From a virus (taxonomy: Duplodnaviria > Caudoviricetes): a stretch of DNA of 64,000 nucleotides. Made by a program: the position numbers and the translations under genes. Shown here one piece after another: positions 2,080 through 11,249 of this stretch; position 1 is the first letter of the stretch, and each line of letters starts with the position of its first letter. The notes below the pieces were generated by a model, which saw only the letters and a program-made list of their open reading frames with translations, did no database searches and was not told the DNA's origin. The stretch is from positions 32,001 through 96,000 of the IMG/VR virus record IMGVR_UViG_2974764813_000001, one strand, 5' to 3'.

Positions 2080-4638
2080 GTGACCAACGCTTTGCGCCGT
2101 GTCGTAACGGGCTCGACCCGTCGTGTTGCAGACTCCGACATCAGCCAGCTGGTCGCGAAGTATCGCAAGACCGGCACCGTGGCCAAGAAGTGGTCGCCCG
2201 AGCCGGGTTTCGTCTACGCACAGGTGCGGGCGATCTCGGCTCGGGTGAACCAGAACTTCGACGCCTGGCCGTCGGGGGAGCTGCAGAAGGCCGCCCACAC
2301 CTTCGTGGGCAAGCCGATCTTCGTCAACCACAAGAACTTCGATGTGAAGAGGGCCCGCGGCAAGGTGGTGGCCGCGCGCTACATCGAGTCCGGTGACGAC
2401 AAGTACATCGAGACCATCATGGAGGTCGACGCCCAGCGTTACCCCAAGCTGGCCAAGGAGATCGTCGACGGCGGCCTCGACAGCGTCTCGATGGGCGTGG
2501 AGGCCGGGTTCACCGTCTGCTCGGCGTGCAACAACCGCGCCACCGACGAGCACGAGTTCTGCGACCACGTGCGCCACCACAAGGGCCAGAAGATCTGGGT
2601 CACCAACCACAAGACGGGCAAACGCGAGCAGAAGCTGGTCTACGAGGACTGCTTCAAGCTCGGATTCTTCGAGCTGTCTTGGGTTTTCGATCCGGCCGAC
2701 GAGACGGCCCTGACGTCTCGGGTGATGGTCGCCAACAACGGCCGAGTGGCCTATGGCGAGACCGAGGTCCCCGAAGACATCGACACGCTTCGCGATGACG
2801 AGAACGACAGCCTCGACGACTACGAGTTCGTCGAGCCGGTCGATCTCACCACCCCGGAGAACCCCTTCCAGCACTACCTGGAGTCCCCGCCGGAACTGTC
2901 CGGCCCGGATTTCGACATGACCAAACGCCTTGACCGCCAACAGGAGGAACAGGGCCTCGATGGCGACCGTCTCGTCGAAGACATCGGCGACGTCGAAGGT
3001 GATCCCGATTCAGTGGACGCCCCACCAAGGAGGAAGACCATGGGCCGTACCCGCACCGATGCACGTCGTCATGCCGCCGACGAGCACGACGCTCTGGAAG
3101 AGCTCGAAGAGATTGTGCACGAAGACCTCGACGGCGACGGCGAGTCCGGCGAGGACGAGGACCACCGCGAAGAGGTCCTCGACGACGACGCCGACGAGAC
3201 CCCCGAAGAGGACTCGGACGATGACTCCGACGACGAGGGCGACGACGCCCCGGAGTGGGTCGAGAAGCGCGAAGCACAGCGTCGCTCTGCAAAGACGCGC
3301 CGCCGCGCAGGAAAGAAGGGACAGACGAAAGGATCTGCGATGACTGCCACTGCTGCCCGCCGCCGCCAGGCCGACACTTCCGGCCACACCGACGGTGGTC
3401 CCTACGGGGAGAACAACCAGGGCGAGCAGGAAGAGGTCTTCATCTCGCAGACCCCCGCGGCCGAGGCTCTGGTGGCCCCGACCGGCGACGAGTCCAAGAT
3501 CAACAACACCGAGAGCAACCTGGTGGCCAGCATCAAGGCCAAGGGCGCCTCACTGCAGCGCGACCTCGACGCCTACCAGCGCCTGCAGGCCGCCAAGCGT
3601 GCGTCCTCGCGTCCCTACCGCCAGACCGCTGACTTCGTGGCCAGCCTGCCGGTGGGCGAACGTGTCGCTGCCGCACAGCGTTTCGCTGCAGTGTTCGCCG
3701 CCGAGAACCCGAAGTTTTCACCCCGCAAGTTCTTCGCCCACGCGGGCATCAACGCCGAGATGATCCGGTCGGCCCAGCGCCGCACGGCCGACGCGGTCGA
3801 GCAGGCCGACAAGGTCAACCCGGAGCTCAGCGGCACCGACGACCAGAGCCTGCGCGGTGACGACTTCGACGACGTCTCGCTCGACGACGTCGAGACCCAG
3901 CCCAAGGACGCCAGCAAGAAGGTCTTCGCGGCCTTCGAGACCTGGGTCCGCACGCAGACCGGCAAGACCGCCGCGCAGCACAACCCGAACTGGCTGCGCC
4001 GCCAGGCAGCTCGCTGGGCCACGAACCAGGGCCTGGATGTCGCCGTTCTGTACCCGACCCTGGGAAATGTCCTGCGCCAAGCCCGAAAGGGTGAAGCAAC
4101 GACAGGAGCTCCCATGAACCGCCGCGCAAACGACACGTCGCTGGATGTTGCAGCACCGGACGGGCGCGTGGACGTGGAGGCCCCTGTGGCCAACGAGACC
4201 GACGCTGACGCGCAAGCCTCTCAGTACGACCTGAAGGACTTCGCGCACAACGCCGGTGACGATCTCGCCGACCCGGAACTCAGTTCGGATTCTCAGATCT
4301 GGGCTCCCGGCGAGGGTGACAAGACAGCAGCCAAGGCTGACGGCGTGGCGGCGGTTCGATATGCCGAAGCTGTCATCAATGCCGGGCTCGCTCCCGCCAC
4401 CGACCGCTGGAAGCTCGCCAAGCAGGCCGAGACCATGCGGCGCCCCGTGGTCGTAGACCGCACCCGCCTGCTGGAGGCAGTGGCAACTGTCAACGCCTCC
4501 AAGACCAGCAAGACCGCCGCGGCAGTTTCGCGGGGTACTGCGCTCCCTCGGGGGCTGACCAATACGCCCCGCGTCGCCGCGACGAATCCCCGCCTGGCAG
4601 CGGCCGATCCGTCTGACGACTCCGCACTCTTCTTCTGA
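2080..4638 (+). CDS. Prohead maturation protease fused to scaffolding region
   Basis: N-terminal GKPIFVNH...RGKVVAA...VSMG...CSAC...CDH...FELSWVFDPAD; acidic/low-complexity C-terminus; just upstream of decoration and capsid genes. Confidence 0.7.
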   Translation: MTNALRRVVTGSTRRVADSDISQLVAKYRKTGTVAKKWSPEPGFVYAQVRAISARVNQNFDAWPSGELQKAAHTFVGKPIFVNHKNFDVKRARGKVVAARYIESGDDKYIETIMEVDAQRYPKLAKEIVDGGLDSVSMGVEAGFTVCSACNNRATDEHEFCDHVRHHKGQKIWVTNHKTGKREQKLVYEDCFKLGFFELSWVFDPADETALTSRVMVANNGRVAYGETEVPEDIDTLRDDENDSLDDYEFVEPVDLTTPENPFQHYLESPPELSGPDFDMTKRLDRQQEEQGLDGDRLVEDIGDVEGDPDSVDAPPRRKTMGRTRTDARRHAADEHDALEELEEIVHEDLDGDGESGEDEDHREEVLDDDADETPEEDSDDDSDDEGDDAPEWVEKREAQRRSAKTRRRAGKKGQTKGSAMTATAARRRQADTSGHTDGGPYGENNQGEQEEVFISQTPAAEALVAPTGDESKINNTESNLVASIKAKGASLQRDLDAYQRLQAAKRASSRPYRQTADFVASLPVGERVAAAQRFAAVFAAENPKFSPRKFFAHAGINAEMIRSAQRRTADAVEQADKVNPELSGTDDQSLRGDDFDDVSLDDVETQPKDASKKVFAAFETWVRTQTGKTAAQHNPNWLRRQAARWATNQGLDVAVLYPTLGNVLRQARKGEATTGAPMNRRANDTSLDVAAPDGRVDVEAPVANETDADAQASQYDLKDFAHNAGDDLADPELSSDSQIWAPGEGDKTAAKADGVAAVRYAEAVINAGLAPATDRWKLAKQAETMRRPVVVDRTRLLEAVATVNASKTSKTAAAVSRGTALPRGLTNTPRVAATNPRLAAADPSDDSALFF

Positions 4639-4655
4639 GACAAGGAGCTACACCT

Positions 4656-5192
4656 ATGTTTCGCGTGACTCCGGCCAATCCCGCCCAGAAGCGGACCATT
4701 CGGCCCGTGTACGCCCAGCACCAGGCGACTGCCTACGCTGGCTTCCTCGATCCCGCCTGGGATCGATCCTTCGACATCGTGCCCGGCACCGTGATGTCGC
4801 GTAAGTCCGGCGAGGTCTTCGAACCCTTCACCGGCAAGCCCGGTCAGAAGCCGTTCGGCCTCTCGGCGCTGTTCGCGGCCCCGCGCCTGGGCATCGACGA
4901 GGTGACCGGCACTGGTGCCAACAACTTCACCGTCTGGGTGGGCGGCGAGCAGGCGGTCTTCGAGATCCTCAATCCGGGCTTCGACCTGGACGCGGACTGG
5001 AACGCCGCCAACGTCACCGACGGCAGCTTCAAGCTGCTGACGGCCACCGACACCGGTCTGCTGACGCCGACCGGTGTCGATCACGGCAACGCCGTGGCCG
5101 AGCTGATCGACGTCATCTCGACCGACGCCATCCAGATCCGCCTCAACCGCTATGACCTGACCTCCGCGGTCGCTCTGGCGGGCGGCAGCTAA
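4656..5192 (+). CDS. Capsid decoration/stabilising protein
   Basis: 178 aa, AAGGAG RBS, between protease/scaffold and major capsid. Confidence 0.55.
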   Translation: MFRVTPANPAQKRTIRPVYAQHQATAYAGFLDPAWDRSFDIVPGTVMSRKSGEVFEPFTGKPGQKPFGLSALFAAPRLGIDEVTGTGANNFTVWVGGEQAVFEILNPGFDLDADWNAANVTDGSFKLLTATDTGLLTPTGVDHGNAVAELIDVISTDAIQIRLNRYDLTSAVALAGGS

Positions 5193-5225
5193 GGCCAACG
5201 GGAACAGGACAAGGAGCAAACAACC

Positions 5226-6227
5226 ATGAATCTTCCCGCTGCCGTCGGCTCCGGCTTCGGACGCTACGCCACCCACTCGGACGAGTATGTGGCACAGGCA
5301 CAGAACATGCTGCAGCGCATGGGCCGCAAGCTCACCGCTGCCGAGAAGCAGACCAAGCTGGCGAACATCCTCCGGGATCGCCAGAACGGCCTCCTGCGCC
5401 TCGGCCAGTCGATGATCGGCCCGATCCAGCTGCAGCTGCGTTACCAGGGCATCCTGCGTAACGTCCTGCTCGAAGACGCCTGCACGCCAGGCGTTCCCAT
5501 CGAGTACGACGTGATGGACGATCTCGGCCAGGCGTACTACCTGCACGGCAACGAGGGTGAAGTCAAGATCACCCCGTTCGAAGGCAAGCGTATGCGCGTC
5601 GAGATGTTCCGGCTCGCGACCTTCCCGCAGATCAAGAAGGAAGATCTGTACTGGCTGCGGTCGAACATCGTCGAGTACGCCCAGGATCAGTCGAAGCAAG
5701 CGATCATGCGCCAAGAGGACTCGCGCCTGATCACCCTGCTCGAGGTCGCGGCCCAGCACTACCGGACCATCGACTCGACGGCGATCCCCGGCGTCGGCCC
5801 ACTGCCCAACGAGATCACCGTGGCCTCGAGCTACATCCAGCCCGGTGACCTCTACACGGCGTCGAGCTACACCGATAGCCGCCTGCTCGACTCGACCCGC
5901 CTGCTGTGCGGGCCCATCGAGTACCGGGACTTCTACCGGTGGGAGATCAACAACGTCGGTTGGGCCATGAAGGACTCCGTCGTGGCTGGCGAGAAGATCG
6001 TCCAGTTCGGCGAGTACCAGATCGGCAAGTCGGTCATCATCCCCAAGGGCACGCTCTACCTGACCCCGGACCCCGATTACCTCGGCGTCTTCCCGGTCAT
6101 GTACTCCCTCGATGTCGATGAGGACAACCAGGTCGAGCGGTTCGTCAAGGGCTGGGTCATGGACGAGCTCATCGGCATGGCCATCATCAACCCCCGCGGC
6201 ATCGTGATCATCCGCAAGGCTGCCTAA
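5226..6227 (+). CDS. Major capsid protein
   Basis: 333 aa, AAGGAG RBS, C-terminus GWVMDELIGMAIINPRGIVII typical of HK97-fold capsids, followed by a terminator. Confidence 0.8.
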   Translation: MNLPAAVGSGFGRYATHSDEYVAQAQNMLQRMGRKLTAAEKQTKLANILRDRQNGLLRLGQSMIGPIQLQLRYQGILRNVLLEDACTPGVPIEYDVMDDLGQAYYLHGNEGEVKITPFEGKRMRVEMFRLATFPQIKKEDLYWLRSNIVEYAQDQSKQAIMRQEDSRLITLLEVAAQHYRTIDSTAIPGVGPLPNEITVASSYIQPGDLYTASSYTDSRLLDSTRLLCGPIEYRDFYRWEINNVGWAMKDSVVAGEKIVQFGEYQIGKSVIIPKGTLYLTPDPDYLGVFPVMYSLDVDEDNQVERFVKGWVMDELIGMAIINPRGIVIIRKAA

Positions 6228-6241
6228 CCAGCACACCTCGC

Positions 6242-6280
6242 AAAGGGCCCGTCTCCATACGGAGGCGGGCTCTTTGTGTT
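6242..6280 (+). terminator. Intrinsic terminator after capsid gene
   Basis: aagggcccgtctcc-atac-ggaggcgggctctt then tgtgtt. Confidence 0.8.
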
Positions 6281-6371
6281 GAAGTCGTATAGACTGCGTA
6301 TAGCGTCTATCTAGCGAGGAGGATCCGCAGAACAGCATCGTGCGCTGCCCCGAGCACCGGCAGGTGACCGG

Positions 6372-6551
6372 GTGAAGGTCACCGAGGAGATGCTGGTGGA
6401 TCCGGGCCCGCCGCCGGTGCAACAGCTCCAGCGCCGCGCCACCGAGGAGTTCCTCGACCGCCAGATCGACGAGTTGGCACAGTGCTGCGGCGACCGCGAG
6501 TTCGCCGTGTGGCTCTACCGCGGTCCCATCCCGCTGCGCCTTCCGGGCTGA
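6372..6551 (+). CDS. Small hypothetical protein (59 aa)
   Basis: GTG..TGA read manually (VKVTEEMLVDPGPP...PLRLPG); GC3-rich codons. Confidence 0.45.
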   Translation: MKVTEEMLVDPGPPPVQQLQRRATEEFLDRQIDELAQCCGDREFAVWLYRGPIPLRLPG

Positions 6552-6599
6552 CTCGGTTGCACCCGCGCCCCGCCACCTCAATAGGGGAGGAGGTCGGGC

Positions 6600-9500
6600 G
6601 TGAAACGTATTATCACCCACCGCGAGCAGGCCGAGGCGATGCAGTGGTGGCAGCAGGGCGCCATCATGCGCACCGCTGCCAGGGACTACTCGAAGATGAC
6701 CCTCTTGCAGGCCATCAACGAGGACGGCGTCCCCGACCTCTGGCTCGACGCCCATCCCGAATGGGTCGAGCTGATCAAGATGCCGGGAAACAAGGCGTTC
6801 TGGAAGCAGGAGCTCAGCCAAAACGGCGACTGGGACCTGGTCCAGGACTACCTGGAGATCAAGGCCGAAGACGGCGACCAGAACGCCTTCGACGTCCTCG
6901 ACGACCACCGCAAAAACAGCCTGATCGGCCAAGGCGCGGTGCCGATGAACTGGCACTCCGGTGACGACGACGACTACGAACTGGATCCCGGCGACGTCGA
7001 TTTCGACGACGACTTCGAGGAGCACCCGGAGCCCGACGAGTCCTCCGTGGGCTCGCTGCTGCCCGACATCTCCGGCATGAGCCTGCGGGAGTTGCTGGAC
7101 TCCGGTGTCAACAGCGCCTCTGTCCACGAGTGGCTCGACAAGCACCCCAACATCAATGCCGTGCTCAAGGACCCCAGCGATCCGGCGCACCAGATCATCC
7201 TCGACGAGGTCGGCAAGAAGCTCGCTCCGCACCTGGACCCCTCCGACTACCCGGAAGTGCACCAGGCCGTCGGCACCGACACGAAGGGTGTCCCCAGCCA
7301 CGAAGACATGCAGCAGCTCGCTGAGGGGCTCTACGGCGGCCCGCACGGCGACCACAGCGACATCATCAACGCCTGGAAGCAGTGGAGTCCCCAGGACTGG
7401 AAGGACAACCTCGAGGTCGCGGCCACCGGTCAGGCCGGACCGCACTGGAAGGCGCTGGCCGACAAGATGCTCGGCGACAACAAGACGCTGGGCCAGAAGC
7501 TCTCCGACGTGTTCGGCGGCCAGGGCATCAATGCCGAGGCGTTCGACTCCATGTCGCCCGAAGGGCAGAAGAACATGCTCGCCGAGTACCTGGGCAGCGC
7601 CACCGGCGAGAACGAGCACCCCGACGTCAAAAAGCTCTTCGACGAGCACTTCGGCGACCCCAAGGGCCACCCCCTCAAGCCCCAGAGCGACGAGGAGTGG
7701 AACGACTTCATGCAGACGATGTTCCCCGGCCTGGGCGAGGGTGCGCTGCAGAACAGCCTCAACAGCTGGAAGTCGCTGAGCGATAAGCAGTGGGAGGACA
7801 TCGCCGACGGCACCCACCCCGCGGGCTCCGGCGTGGGATTCAAGAACTGGAAGAAGCTCAAGGACTACCCGGACAAGCCCTCCACGGGGCTCAACGACGC
7901 CGTCGACGAACTGCTCAACGAACTGTCCGGCGACCCGTGGAACAGCGACGTCAAGCCCAGCACGCCCAGTAAGCCCACCAACCCGTGGGACAACCCGCCC
8001 AAGTCTGGCGACTCCCAGAGCGTGCTCGCCCCGATCAAGTCTCCGGGAGGCAAACCCCTCTACGGCGAGCCTGGCCCGTCCTTCGGTGTCAGCTACAACC
8101 CCGGTGACCGTCAGAGCCGCCCGATGAGTCTGGACTCGCCGATGTTCAACGAGGACAACCGGCCGATGATGCCCGACGGCCGCTGGTACTTCTCGCCCAG
8201 CGACCACAACCCGCTGTCGCAGAGCGATGCGCGCCCCGAGGTCCGCTGGGACCGCAACGACTTCGAGGAAGACGACGTGCTGCCGGGCATGCCGACCGAG
8301 AACCGGTCGGTGAAGCTCTACCGCGGCGAGCCGATCAACCTCGATCACCCCGGCGCCGCGCACATCAAGAAGATGCTCTACGGCGAGACGCCCGACCCCG
8401 ACACCCCGATGCTGCCGGGCACGGAGCAGCTGATGGGCGCCCCGGCCTACGGCAAGGGCTCACCGCGCGAAGGACTGCCCGACGCGGACTGGGCCACCAA
8501 GTACCTGCACCAGACGGTCCCCGGCCTCAACAAGGACGAGGAGTTCTGGACCGACGACCTGATCAAGGACCTGCCCGACGACAACCCGGTGGTCCAGGCG
8601 TGGCGCCGCGGCCACGACGCCGACAGCGACCCGTTCCGCAACCCCGAGCTGGGCAAGGCGCTGCTCGACCACTGGGAGAAGACCCGCGGCAAGGACTACC
8701 CCGGCCCCGATCTGCAGGGCCTGGGACGGCACTGGACGCTCGATCCCGGCCTGGCCAGCAACTTCGGCGGCGCCAACAGCCGCTACGTCCTGCCGACGCG
8801 GTTCGTCTCGGAGTGGGACGGCAGCGGTGAGGACCCGTACCGCTCCAACACCGGCGGCGACTACCCGCACGAGAAGGAGATCACCAAGATCCCCGGCTCG
8901 CCCATGAAGATCGTCGATGTCCAGGTCAAGCACCCCGACACCTACGAATGGGTCTCGGCCTGGCCCAAGGGGCACACCGAGACCCGCTACTCGTCGCGCG
9001 GCGGGATCACCGGCCACCGCGAACAGGCCGAGGCGCTCGCGCAGCTGGAGTACCTCTACCGCACCGGGGCGTTGTCCGACAGCGAGTACTACGCACGGGT
9101 GCGCCAGGTGATGGACCAGGTGGACAACGCCCGCCGGTCGGGCCAGACCACCAACAAGCTGCACGCCGGTCCGATGGCGGGCTACTCGCTGCCGCGCTAC
9201 ATCCAGCAGCAGCAGCTGCTCAACGACGCCTGGAAGGAGCTGGGGGAGAACGTGCCCCGCAACCGCCACGGGCTGATCGTCGGCGGGCTGCCCGGCTCGG
9301 GCAAATCCACCGTGCTCGACAACCACGCCGAGATCGAAGGCGTCGGCCCGGTCAAGGGCAACTTCCTGCGCATCGACCCGGACTACTTCAAGGAGCAGAT
9401 GGGCAAGCGGGGGATGACCCCGCAGATCGAGGGGCTCTCACCGCTGGAGACCGCGGCGCTGATCCACGACGAGTCCACCGACCTGGCCCACCGGCTGGCC

Positions 9501-9866
9501 CACCGCGCCTACCAGGAGGGCACCAACGTCGCCTGGGACGGCACGCTGCGGTATCCGGGCACCGACAAGATCGAGGACTTCAAGAAGCACGGGTACACCC
9601 CGCACGGCATCTTCGTCGACCTGCCGCTGGACGCCTCGGTGCAACGGGCCCAGGAGCGTTACCGTCGGGGGCATGAGGGGTATGTCGCCGGGACCAACCC
9701 GCTCGGCGGCCGCCTGGTGCCCGAGGACTACATCCGCAGCAGCGCCAGCCCGCAGCCGGGGTTCAACTCGATCAACCGCAAGAACTTCGAGGACATGCGC
9801 GCGCACTTCGCCACTCCGGCACAGGTCTGGGACAGCACGGACCTGCCCCCGCGGCGACTTGAGTAA
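6600..9866 (+). CDS. Multidomain protein: leader + acidic helical region + ADP-ribosyltransferase-like domain + second leader + zeta-toxin-like P-loop kinase
   Basis: GGAGGAGG RBS; KLYRG / RHWTLDPGLA / HEKEI ART-like motifs; GGLPGSGKST Walker A plus IDPDYFK, IHDES, WDGT, GGRLVP zeta-family motifs. Confidence 0.75.
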   Translation: MKRIITHREQAEAMQWWQQGAIMRTAARDYSKMTLLQAINEDGVPDLWLDAHPEWVELIKMPGNKAFWKQELSQNGDWDLVQDYLEIKAEDGDQNAFDVLDDHRKNSLIGQGAVPMNWHSGDDDDYELDPGDVDFDDDFEEHPEPDESSVGSLLPDISGMSLRELLDSGVNSASVHEWLDKHPNINAVLKDPSDPAHQIILDEVGKKLAPHLDPSDYPEVHQAVGTDTKGVPSHEDMQQLAEGLYGGPHGDHSDIINAWKQWSPQDWKDNLEVAATGQAGPHWKALADKMLGDNKTLGQKLSDVFGGQGINAEAFDSMSPEGQKNMLAEYLGSATGENEHPDVKKLFDEHFGDPKGHPLKPQSDEEWNDFMQTMFPGLGEGALQNSLNSWKSLSDKQWEDIADGTHPAGSGVGFKNWKKLKDYPDKPSTGLNDAVDELLNELSGDPWNSDVKPSTPSKPTNPWDNPPKSGDSQSVLAPIKSPGGKPLYGEPGPSFGVSYNPGDRQSRPMSLDSPMFNEDNRPMMPDGRWYFSPSDHNPLSQSDARPEVRWDRNDFEEDDVLPGMPTENRSVKLYRGEPINLDHPGAAHIKKMLYGETPDPDTPMLPGTEQLMGAPAYGKGSPREGLPDADWATKYLHQTVPGLNKDEEFWTDDLIKDLPDDNPVVQAWRRGHDADSDPFRNPELGKALLDHWEKTRGKDYPGPDLQGLGRHWTLDPGLASNFGGANSRYVLPTRFVSEWDGSGEDPYRSNTGGDYPHEKEITKIPGSPMKIVDVQVKHPDTYEWVSAWPKGHTETRYSSRGGITGHREQAEALAQLEYLYRTGALSDSEYYARVRQVMDQVDNARRSGQTTNKLHAGPMAGYSLPRYIQQQQLLNDAWKELGENVPRNRHGLIVGGLPGSGKSTVLDNHAEIEGVGPVKGNFLRIDPDYFKEQMGKRGMTPQIEGLSPLETAALIHDESTDLAHRLAHRAYQEGTNVAWDGTLRYPGTDKIEDFKKHGYTPHGIFVDLPLDASVQRAQERYRRGHEGYVAGTNPLGGRLVPEDYIRSSASPQPGFNSINRKNFEDMRAHFATPAQVWDSTDLPPRRLE

Positions 9867-9870
9867 GAAA

Positions 9871-9879
9871 TGGTATAGT
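9871..9879 (+). promoter_or_regulatory. Extended -10 SigA-type promoter (TGG-TATAGT)
   Basis: AT-rich island between zeta gene and the following small ORF. Confidence 0.55.
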
Positions 9880-9919
9880 TTATGTATAGAACTATTGACA
9901 CGGCAGGGAAGGGGTGATC

Positions 9920-10186
9920 ATGGAGCGACCTCAGACCTACCGTGAGGCGGCCGACTGGTTCGTCGAGGGCAAGCTGACGTTCGACCAGTTGCACGACGCG
10001 ATGGGGTACCTGCCCCCGCCGGAGACACGCCGAGAGCCGCAGTCGCTGGCCGACATCTACGACATCGCCGACGAACCTCGCGGGCCCAACTCGACATTCT
10101 GGATCGCCGTGCTCGAGACCTGCGGAAAGATCACCCTCGACCAACTCGTCGAGCTCCTGGAGACCGTTGCTGAAATCCACCGGTGA
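9920..10186 (+). CDS. Small helical protein, candidate antitoxin/immunity protein
   Basis: 88 aa, internal repeat GKLTFDQL/GKITLDQL, own promoter, directly after the zeta domain. Confidence 0.6.
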   Translation: MERPQTYREAADWFVEGKLTFDQLHDAMGYLPPPETRREPQSLADIYDIADEPRGPNSTFWIAVLETCGKITLDQLVELLETVAEIHR

Positions 10187-10219
10187 TGCGGATTCTAGAC
10201 CATTTCTAGGTTTGCACTG

Positions 10220-10248
10220 TTGCCCTTCTGGGAATTTCCACTTACAGT
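10220..10248 (+). promoter_or_regulatory. SigA-like promoter TTGCCC-N17-TACAGT
   Basis: Canonical spacing, upstream of the 10281 ORF. Confidence 0.55.
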
Positions 10249-10280
10249 AATCAGGTAAGCTCCGGGAAGGGGGTGAAGGT

Positions 10281-10487
10281 ATGCACAGCTACCTGGTAAC
10301 CATGCTCGACCGAATGACAGGCAGCGAATGCCGCGTGGTGGTGCAGGCCGAGTGCCCCCACGATATGCAGGAGTTTGTGGATCGTCTTGCGCGCGAAGGC
10401 AAACTGCCCATCAGCAGCCCGGTGGTCGTCGACATCGACGACCGCGCCGCCGCGCACGTCCCCTTGGTGAACCCAGCCAAGCTCTAA
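10281..10487 (+). CDS. Hypothetical protein (68 aa)
   Basis: RBS-like purine run, flanked by a promoter and a terminator. Confidence 0.6.
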   Translation: MHSYLVTMLDRMTGSECRVVVQAECPHDMQEFVDRLAREGKLPISSPVVVDIDDRAAAHVPLVNPAKL

Positions 10488-10504
10488 TTCCACTTTCGGT
10501 GATG

Positions 10505-10534
10505 ACCCCAGAGCGCTGACGCTCTGGGGTTTTC
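10505..10534 (+). terminator. Intrinsic terminator
   Basis: accccagagcg-ctga-cgctctggggt-ttt. Confidence 0.8.
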
Positions 10535-10622
10535 GCTGTTCGGTGCCTGCGCCCCTGTGCGGAAGACCCGTGCCATCCCGGAATAGATGAGTACGTGTTT
10601 TGTCCGACCGCAAGGAGACACC

Positions 10623-11249
10623 ATGACCACCACGACTGCTACGCCGACACCGCGCACCATCGCCGAACTGCGCAAGCACGACGGGCCGATCTACATGGCT
10701 AACAACACCGCCAACCGGGTGCACTGCCACGAGCAGCTCGGTGATCACCGCGTCGACTTCGAGCTCGACCCGGTCGGCGGCGAGGACTCGATCCAGATGG
10801 TGCCCAAGATGGCCCTGGAGGTCCGCGGCATCCAGAAGATGTGGCGCAACGGCGACCTGACCGTGAGCACCGACGAGTCGATGGAAGAGCAGATCACCCT
10901 GCTCATCGACCGCAACATCAAGACCCCGCAGGACCGCCTCAACGGCATCATGGCCGCCAGCGGCGACGGGGCCACCCTGCAGGTCGAGGGGTCGGCCAAC
11001 GGCAAGAACCTCACCGAGAAGGCGTGCCTGGAGTGCGGCGCCTACGACCCGAAGACCGGTGTGCTGCTGCGCGGCCGTGTGGTGATGCGGGTCTCCGACG
11101 TCGAAGAGGGTGTCGCGCCGCTGTGCGCGACCCACCAGCACCTGTCCACGCAGTGGGCCGGTCGCCAGGTCCTCGCCGACACCGACGAGACCCCGCACTG
11201 GGAGTTCGACAAGGTCTCGCTCACCGCCCCGGTGCGCGAACAGGGCTGA
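10623..11249 (+). CDS. Hypothetical protein with CxxC...CxxH motif
   Basis: AAGGAG RBS before ATG 10623; CLEC/CATH. Confidence 0.65.
   Translation: MTTTTATPTPRTIAELRKHDGPIYMANNTANRVHCHEQLGDHRVDFELDPVGGEDSIQMVPKMALEVRGIQKMWRNGDLTVSTDESMEEQITLLIDRNIKTPQDRLNGIMAASGDGATLQVEGSANGKNLTEKACLECGAYDPKTGVLLRGRVVMRVSDVEEGVAPLCATHQHLSTQWAGRQVLADTDETPHWEFDKVSLTAPVREQG

Follow-up and report, generated by a model that had tools for sequence, protein, structure and literature searches.

Why should the peptide that opens a phage protein recur, in frame, in the middle of the same protein? The question is raised by the effector gene P0001 (6600-9866, plus strand), which lies in a 64,000-nucleotide (nt) stretch of Caudoviricetes DNA, hereafter the window, covering bases 32001-96000 of the 136,361-bp viral record IMGVR_UViG_2974764813_000001 (CheckV completeness 97%). 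An earlier note on this DNA had read the product as two leader-cargo genes fused in frame, the first carrying an ADP-ribosyltransferase (ART)-like module and the second a zeta-toxin module. With its 1088 open codons and a GC content at third codon positions of 0.93, the open reading frame (ORF) is a real gene. We propose, at a probability of roughly 0.55, that it encodes a polyvalent effector made of two leader-cargo units, which would be tagged for the capsid, cut by the head protease and injected into the next host.

The repeat was found again as the earlier note had described it: the 21-mer at 6618-6638 recurs at 9015-9035 with a single mismatch. No further match with up to two mismatches was found in the window or in 100 shuffles. 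The repeat is in fact one base longer, with 21 identities over 22 nt (Table 1), and 26 of 27 repeat bases agree when the upstream ATCACC and a 3-nt indel are included. At the protein level, HREQAEA (residues 7-13 and 806-812) is the longest repeated peptide of P0001, and a repeated 7-mer appeared in 4 of 2000 composition-preserving shuffles of the protein. A recent duplication, as read from the near-identity of the DNA, was rejected: given the same residues, codon bias alone yields at least 8 of 9 identical codons at P ~0.11, so that codon bias accounts for the near-identity, which is no evidence of a recent event.

The origin of the internal copy is instead revealed by split homologs, which the earlier note had suggested looking for at this junction. 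P0116, a free-standing metagenomic protein of 297 amino acids (aa) that starts MRRIVTHREQAEA, aligns over its residues 4-296 with residues 803-1087 of P0001 (55% identity, E 1e-102). Because the internal segment is colinear with the start of P0116, it corresponds to the N-terminal leader of a separate gene, which establishes the in-frame fusion. When residues 800-1088 were searched for shorter relatives, P0117 also came up as a second free-standing leader+zeta protein. Free-standing leader+ART-like proteins are common. On this comparison of sequences, we regard both the modular make-up of P0001 and the joining of two leader-cargo units as demonstrated, in line with what had been claimed.

Were the internal copy instead a common helix of the SHOCT/DUF1707 type, or a repeat that arose by chance, it would have no relation to the N-terminus. 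This reading takes its cue from a weak Pfam DUF1707 (SHOCT-like) match to the internal segment (E 0.032), whose 14.7 bits fall under the family cut-off of 27.6. It has to contend with the rarity of the repeated 7-mer in shuffled proteins and with the colinearity between the segment and the N-terminus of P0116. Moreover, the SHOCT-like look comes from the LSD.EY helix, a conserved element with which the zeta module begins in every relative, irrespective of the sequence before it. Since the match is below threshold and this helix explains it better, we rejected the SHOCT reading of the linker and consider an unrelated internal copy barely credible.

Both loci of split modules and other module borders provide further observations. 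At the P0117 locus (Logan ERR15459719), a 494-aa protein that combines an ADP-ribosylglycohydrolase domain with a weak phosphatase domain is encoded two genes upstream of the leader+zeta gene. At loci L012 (5919-7004) and L013 (179-1426), DUF7178 has a gene of its own, coupled to that of the effector, and in P0010 it is a fused part of the polyprotein; in L013 its gene begins with MQHDWRTADDYG, exactly at the RTAD border seen in P0010. In P0012, a whole extra domain that is absent from its relative P0011 lies between RRTAAL and GRQASL.

The cargo behind the internal leader is, by its sequence, solidly assigned as a zeta-toxin-type kinase. Residues 892-1046 match Pfam PF06414 with 62.7 bits (cut-off 22.3, E 4.1e-17), and the zeta motifs are found in order: Walker A GGLPGSGKST, at the position given in the earlier note (residues 895-904, 9282-9311), RIDPDYFK (residues 924-931, 9369-9392) and WDGTLRYP (residues 979-986, 9534-9557). 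A phmmer search of the zeta region against PDB sequences gave no match and a profile alone succeeded: built from zeta-module relatives, it matches Zeta (1gvn, E 1.5e-9) and PezT (2p5t, E 4.8e-7), and AvrRxo1 more weakly. Walker A, the catalytic Asp of ID.D and GT.R align with GGQPGSGKT, IDNDTFK and EGTGRT of Zeta 1gvn, and likewise with PezT. Taken together, the Pfam and profile matches bear out what had been proposed for the C-terminal module.

Like Zeta and PezT of the epsilon-zeta and PezAT systems (PDB 1gvn, 2p5t), the module belongs to the P-loop kinase fold family and has all three motifs. It differs from them in an extra N-terminal helix ([LM][ST]D.E[YFW]) and in its position behind another enzyme in the structural-gene region of a phage. 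Whereas those systems pair the kinase with an antitoxin, no epsilon or PezA homolog was found upstream of the zeta module, where the capsid gene and a 59-aa ORF lie, and an unrelated 88-aa gene follows downstream. The zeta family is characterised by phosphorylation of UDP-N-acetylglucosamine (UDP-GlcNAc) at the 3'-OH; for this module the substrate is a prediction, and the distant profile matches also include AvrRxo1-type NAD kinases. When a free-standing zeta protein was searched in phages by tblastn, matches were found in haloviruses only, at 24% identity.

Homologs of the 88-aa protein (P0003) are encoded directly behind the zeta module in all five loci examined, and in one of them the protein is fused to the module. 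It has no Pfam or PHROG family and gave no usable match in a protein atlas search. This arrangement suggests a kinase inhibitor that, having no leader, would restrain the kinase in the cell that makes the phage and would not be packaged with it.

For the middle domain, searches by family gave no match, either to Pfam (E <=10 for the domain, E <=0.1 for its 35 members) or, using the family profile, to PDB sequences; its PHROG labels are 'unknown' and 'ParB C-terminal domain'. The domain is rare, with 98 clusters among 1.84 billion representative proteins, and tblastn in phage records matched it alone, in cluster C 'ParB-like' proteins. In an alignment of the 35 members, the two ExE glutamates and a Gly before HW never vary, HW and W.G.G.D are nearly invariant, and the domains end with PxxRxA[AS].

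Two AlphaFold models, one of this domain and one of a compact 203-aa homolog, had pLDDT (predicted local distance difference test) scores of 78.3 and 78.8. Each was compared with 48,161 chains by a structure search other than Foldseek. The top structural matches of both models were almost only ADP-ribosyltransferases, all at Z <5: TreX (Z 4.8, root-mean-square deviation 3.9, 101 aligned), PltA (4.5), pertussis S1 (4.2 and 3.8), LT (3.8) and Scabin (3.7). Foldseek on the ART-like model gave no match at E <=0.001, the best being E 0.2 or worse. The motifs that the earlier note had located were confirmed (VKLYRG at 8310-8327, GLGRHWT at 8718-8738, HEKE from 8868) and could be placed on the model: Arg575 (8322-8324) in predicted strand 1 (model residues 52-61), H711-W712-T713 (8730-8738) in strand 2 (192-194) and E758-x-E760 (8871-8879) at the start of the strand at 241-244, that is strand 5. 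The R-S-E (cholera-toxin-like) division of ARTs has this layout, with Arg in strand 1, the Ser/Thr motif in strand 2 and ExE in strand 5. Fold retrieval and motif positions both support the ART-like assignment, and the domain is probably a divergent R-S-E-type ART fold. N-terminal to it, residues 28-519 hold repeated M[TS]L..LL..G...WL..HP modules that are also present in homologs; the protein atlas search gave no usable match for this region.

The leader is shared well beyond P0001. Run against the six-frame translation of the 136-kb genome, an 8-residue leader pattern has exactly four matches, each 3-5 residues past an ORF start, and a 27-position leader profile confirms the four (E 4e-14 to 8e-8). 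All four genes adjoin structural genes, and the orthologs P0012 and P0006 are likewise located downstream of cement and capsid genes. The near-length homologs with ART-like and zeta modules all begin M.RRI[LIV][TS][HQ]REQ, P0026 with the close variant MARRIWSQREQ. Overall, the leader opens 31 of 124 fetched relatives, and the profile also finds the starts of ScottMcG gp103, a homolog of the first domain in P0006, P0008 and P0010, and of its Alice counterpart.

Seven further relatives among the 124 carry a leader copy away from the N-terminus, either about 290 residues from the C-terminus, before the last ART-like domain (P0036, P0037, P0038, P0042 and P0045), or at the C-terminus itself (P0072 and P0073). 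A leader-like tail also terminates 12 giant relatives, and in the two tail loci read as DNA the last tail codons form the Shine-Dalgarno sequence of the next gene. That the leader is found at either end of proteins as well as internally argues for a role at the protein level. From these occurrences we infer a portable peptide of about 20 residues with the core [IV][IL][TSK][HQ]xEQ, usually followed by R-[TILV]-A-[AS], and by R-T-G-A in the internal copy of P0001.

Were the protein to act in the infected cell rather than as virion cargo, the leader could be a partner-binding or oligomerisation helix, or a DNA homology anchor for cassette swapping. The two repeat copies are 2397 nt apart and in frame, and recombination between them would therefore regenerate exactly a P0116-like leader+zeta gene; P0116 and P0117 both lie outside head modules, and split and fused forms alternate at borders, as DUF7178 does between L012 or L013 and P0010. 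A DNA anchor, however, fails to explain leaders that form the C-terminal end of a protein and have no cargo after them. It is the peptide that is conserved, among proteins with less than 50% identity, and all four carriers of the genome and the orthologs are found among structural genes. Fusions with a portal domain (PF06074) and with a prohead protease (PF04586) also occur among zeta-module relatives. We consider a role outside the virion improbable, and a capsid-directed leader the better account.

Other leader-bearing genes were noted in passing. ScottMcG gp103 (L006:14488-15789), from a cultured Bxz1-like phage, opens with the leader MCNRRRIVTAREQFEMLQPWYREAAA. At L014:6290-6345 and L015:750-812, giant and small relatives end ...RPR.AKRI[LV][ST]QRE..LEG-stop, and the tail codons CTGGAGGG(C/A)TGA serve as Shine-Dalgarno sequence for the next gene, which encodes a small membrane protein. 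Within the window, P0022 and P0023 (15480-16486) are translationally coupled and share the leader variant AILKQA[QE]Q[FY]SWR. P0022 has a YELWRG motif and no match in phage records; its candidacy for the ART-like family was rejected as unsupported because hhalign aligned the LYRG-like stretch alone (probability 1.2%). Outside the window, a leader-bearing protein of 2030 aa is encoded beside a virion structural gene (G000:C1:126357-132449; L005:4358-10450). This paralog has three clear ART-like copies, four RTAA borders and a weak PI3/4-kinase-like N-terminal region (E 0.004).

The motif that follows the leader, R-x-A-[AS], appears to mark the borders between modules. RTA[AD] occurs four times in the 2030-aa paralog against 0.08 expected, and [RK][TIV]A[ASD] seven times against 0.69 in the 852-aa protein with a head-maturation-protease domain, whose long tail carries these seven motifs. 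Genome-wide, 8 of the 13 RTA[AD] sites fall in four head-region proteins that make up about 11% of the residues scanned. YRTGA of P0001 (9057-9071), where a cleavage after the Gly had been suggested, is positioned exactly at the module border: P0026 reads YSS-ARLAA-MSDEEY where P0001 reads YRTGA-LSDSEY, so that the site aligns with the junction between RLAA and MSDEEY. Alice gp75 has motifs of this kind, QTAA, RAAS, RTAA and RTAD, between its four modules.

Herpesvirus assemblin cuts at Ala/Ser sites, and phage prohead proteases share the assemblin fold. Cuts at R-x-[AGS]/[AS], as the borders of P0001 and its relatives suggest, would resemble these sites in type. The 852-aa protein is the presumed processing enzyme.

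The following mechanism can be proposed. P0001 consists, in order, of a leader, an acidic Trp-rich region, an R-S-E-type ART-like domain (about residues 560-799), a second leader and a zeta kinase. The leader, like the T4 capsid targeting sequence (CTS), would take late-made proteins into the prohead, where the N-terminal protease domain of the 2080-4638 product may cut at R-x-[AGS]/[AS] borders, removing the N-terminal leader and excising the internal one. The predicted products, an ART-like fragment (about 86 kDa) and a zeta kinase (about 30 kDa), would enter the next host with the DNA. There, the kinase might phosphorylate UDP-GlcNAc or a related nucleotide, and the ART-like enzyme might modify a host target.

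Several points weigh against this proposal. The HREQ core is present in the linker of only two of the eight fused ortholog clusters (those of P0001 and P0008), and an internal leader is therefore not required for the fused form. The gene for P0116 adjoins resolvase and DUF genes and no head genes, and every structural match of the middle domain to ARTs stays at Z <5. The P values of the border motif are optimistic because the motif was defined after the sequences had been inspected. The protease domain of the 852-aa protein is recognised by one PHROG profile only and not by Pfam, and exact cut sites cannot be placed. Capsid packaging, cleavage, activity and toxicity of P0001 are all inferred, and a literature search on Bxz1 virion proteomics or structure found nothing usable.

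Part of this evidence would also fit a fusion scar that is never processed, with the internal leader as a flexible helical linker and the 121-kDa protein as one two-headed enzyme, packaged or not. Across the eight fused clusters (P0026 included) the linker ranges from about 5 to about 150 residues and is the most variable part of the protein; six have short or unrelated linkers with no HREQ core. In addition, P0001 has no peptidase domain in family searches. Yet R-x-A-A-type motifs persist at the border even in the shortest linkers (ARLAA in P0026, RRTAAL in P0012). Where the internal core is present, it matches the N-terminus of the same protein, reading A-E-A in P0001 and V-[DE]-A in P0008. 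Leader copies are also conserved inside and at the C-termini of giant relatives. An unprocessed fusion is, in our view, unlikely, though less so than a role outside the virion, and we retain the processed, two-unit effector.

The gene neighbourhood places P0001 in the head region. Upstream lie, in order, genes for a LysM/transglycosylase-like giant protein, the 852-aa protein, a cement protein (Pfam Phage_cement_3) and the major capsid protein (5226-6227), which shares 75% identity with its counterpart in Bxz1-like (cluster C) mycobacteriophages. The slot behind the capsid gene holds an HNH endonuclease in ScottMcG, in contrast to the 1088-aa gene here. Composition is uniform across the region, with no foreign signature. 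A megablast of the effector gene against 50,697 phage records gave no match, and a search of viral contigs for loci related to the effector locus found no relative. A 1356-aa minus-strand open frame (4293-8363) faces the capsid and effector genes and is most likely a high-GC shadow ORF and no gene.

Around the effector gene, a promoter and terminator scan of 6100-10700 gave nothing exceeding shuffle level. Immediately 5' of the ribosome-binding site and GTG start, AATAGGGGA is found at 6581-6589. In the AT-rich gap behind the gene (9867-9919) there is an inverted repeat, ATAGTT...AACTAT, and the 88-aa gene is immediately preceded by a TTGACA hexamer. Between the capsid and effector genes, the 59-aa ORF (6372-6551, plus strand) ends ...DREFAVWLYRGPIPLRLPG. 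Strand 1 of the ART-like domain (NRSVKLYRGEPINL) is similar to this end, with an 88% match between 6507-6523 and 8310-8326 at the DNA level, and the ORF may be the remnant of a lost cassette.

Table 1. Features of the effector locus and of further leader-bearing genes, in window coordinates.
Feature	Position	Strand	Remarks
852-aa protein	2080..4638	+	N-terminal head-maturation-protease domain (residues 69-216), long Ala-/charge-rich tail
Effector gene P0001	6600..9866	+	1088 aa, 121.4 kDa; GTG start behind GGGGAGGAGG ribosome-binding site
N-terminal leader, residues 2-27	6603..6680	+	KRIITHREQAEAM...MRTAA; same leader at start of other genes/relatives
DNA repeat copy 1, 22 nt	6617..6638	+	
Acidic Trp-rich region, residues 28-519	6681..8156	+	no known family
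ART-like domain, residues 520-799	8157..8996	+	terminal TETRYSS
Internal leader copy, residues 803-824	9006..9071	+	ITGHREQAEALAQLEYLYRTGA; candidate cut behind G823
DNA repeat copy 2	9014..9035	+	21/22 identical; 2397 nt = 799 codons from copy 1, in frame
Zeta-toxin kinase module, residues 825-1088	9072..9863	+	N-helix LSDSEYY
88-aa acidic protein P0003	9920..10186	+	10.1 kDa, isoelectric point 4.5; candidate inhibitor/immunity protein
P0022, 209 aa	15480..16109	+	opens with leader variant SVAILKQAQQFSWRT
P0023, ~126 aa	16106..16486	+	opens with leader variant MTAILKQAEQYSWRVA

P0001 can be compared with three known classes of phage proteins. Polyvalent proteins combine several effector domains in one polypeptide, are encoded among late or structural genes and are predicted to be packaged and injected; ART domains occur in them, sometimes in many copies, and zeta-like kinases have been noted both there and in MuF fusions (Iyer, Burroughs, Anand, de Souza and Aravind, 2017; PMC5512222). 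With at least two predicted effector domains in one phage polypeptide and its structural-gene context, P0001 has the features of this class. In contrast to many of its members, P0001 lacks an embedded metallopeptidase or other peptidase, which is frequent and not universal in the class. The ARTs reported there are of H-Y-D types only (PMC5512222), whereas the Arg / HW[ST] / ExE arrangement here is of the R-S-E type. A further difference is that a specific leader peptide and R-x-A-[AS] borders set off the modules of P0001 and its relatives.

In T4, the CTS on IPI-III and Alt is removed by the prohead protease gp21, and Alt is trimmed at both ends (PMC9026906). Like the CTS, the leader is a short N-terminal peptide common to otherwise unrelated head-module proteins, one of which is an ADP-ribosyltransferase in T4 and an ART-like protein here, and is followed by a putative processing site; the positions of the leader copies, at the N-terminus, internally and at the C-terminus, recall the trimming of Alt at both ends. 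However, the leader has no sequence similarity to the CTS, it is longer (about 20-27 aa) and it also occurs inside polyproteins. T4 cuts after Glu (LIE-type cleavage logo, PMC9026906), whereas the putative motif here is R-x-A/[AS], and for the tag here the function is a prediction.

In MuF polymorphic toxins, likewise, the N-terminal part is associated with the head, the C-terminal toxin varies and a small immunity-like gene follows downstream (Jamet et al., 2017; PMC5576092). P0001 differs from them in that it has no MuF family match and that its delivery part would be a short leader rather than a structural domain. Unlike the temperate phages that carry MuF toxins, the phage here is a Bxz1-like myovirus relative.

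Tagged and processed capsid cargo is already known as a general idea, and no new principle is put forward here. New here are the leader, which is also used internally and at the C-terminus, the motif at the borders, a family of R-S-E-type ART-like domains in polyvalent proteins and the pair formed by the zeta module and its partner. A wider hypothesis, to which we give somewhat less than even odds, is that Bxz1-like actinobacteriophages, cultured ones such as ScottMcG (gp103) included, generally use RI[IL]T[HQ]REQ...R-T-A-A as a portable tag for capsid addressing and release, at N-terminal, internal and C-terminal positions, and that an assemblin-like prohead protease of the Ala/Ser type cuts it at R-x-A/[AS]. 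If true, it would represent a second, independent CTS-like system, the leader could serve to package proteins of choice in mycobacteriophage capsids, and the injected R-S-E ART-like enzymes would form a defined family that is as yet unnamed in databases.

Injected phage proteins decide the first minutes of infection and, to our knowledge, how they are chosen for packaging is almost unknown outside T4, P1, N4 and the phiKZ group. The locus yields a testable rule for a large group of actinobacteriophages, including the cultured Bxz1-like mycobacteriophages: a recognisable leader and an R-x-A-[AS] border mark cargo modules. It reveals an unannotated ART-like family and a predicted zeta kinase that has a conserved small partner in a lytic-type phage, rather than in a plasmid addiction module. 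How new combinations of effectors arise can be seen from modules that exist both on their own and fused.

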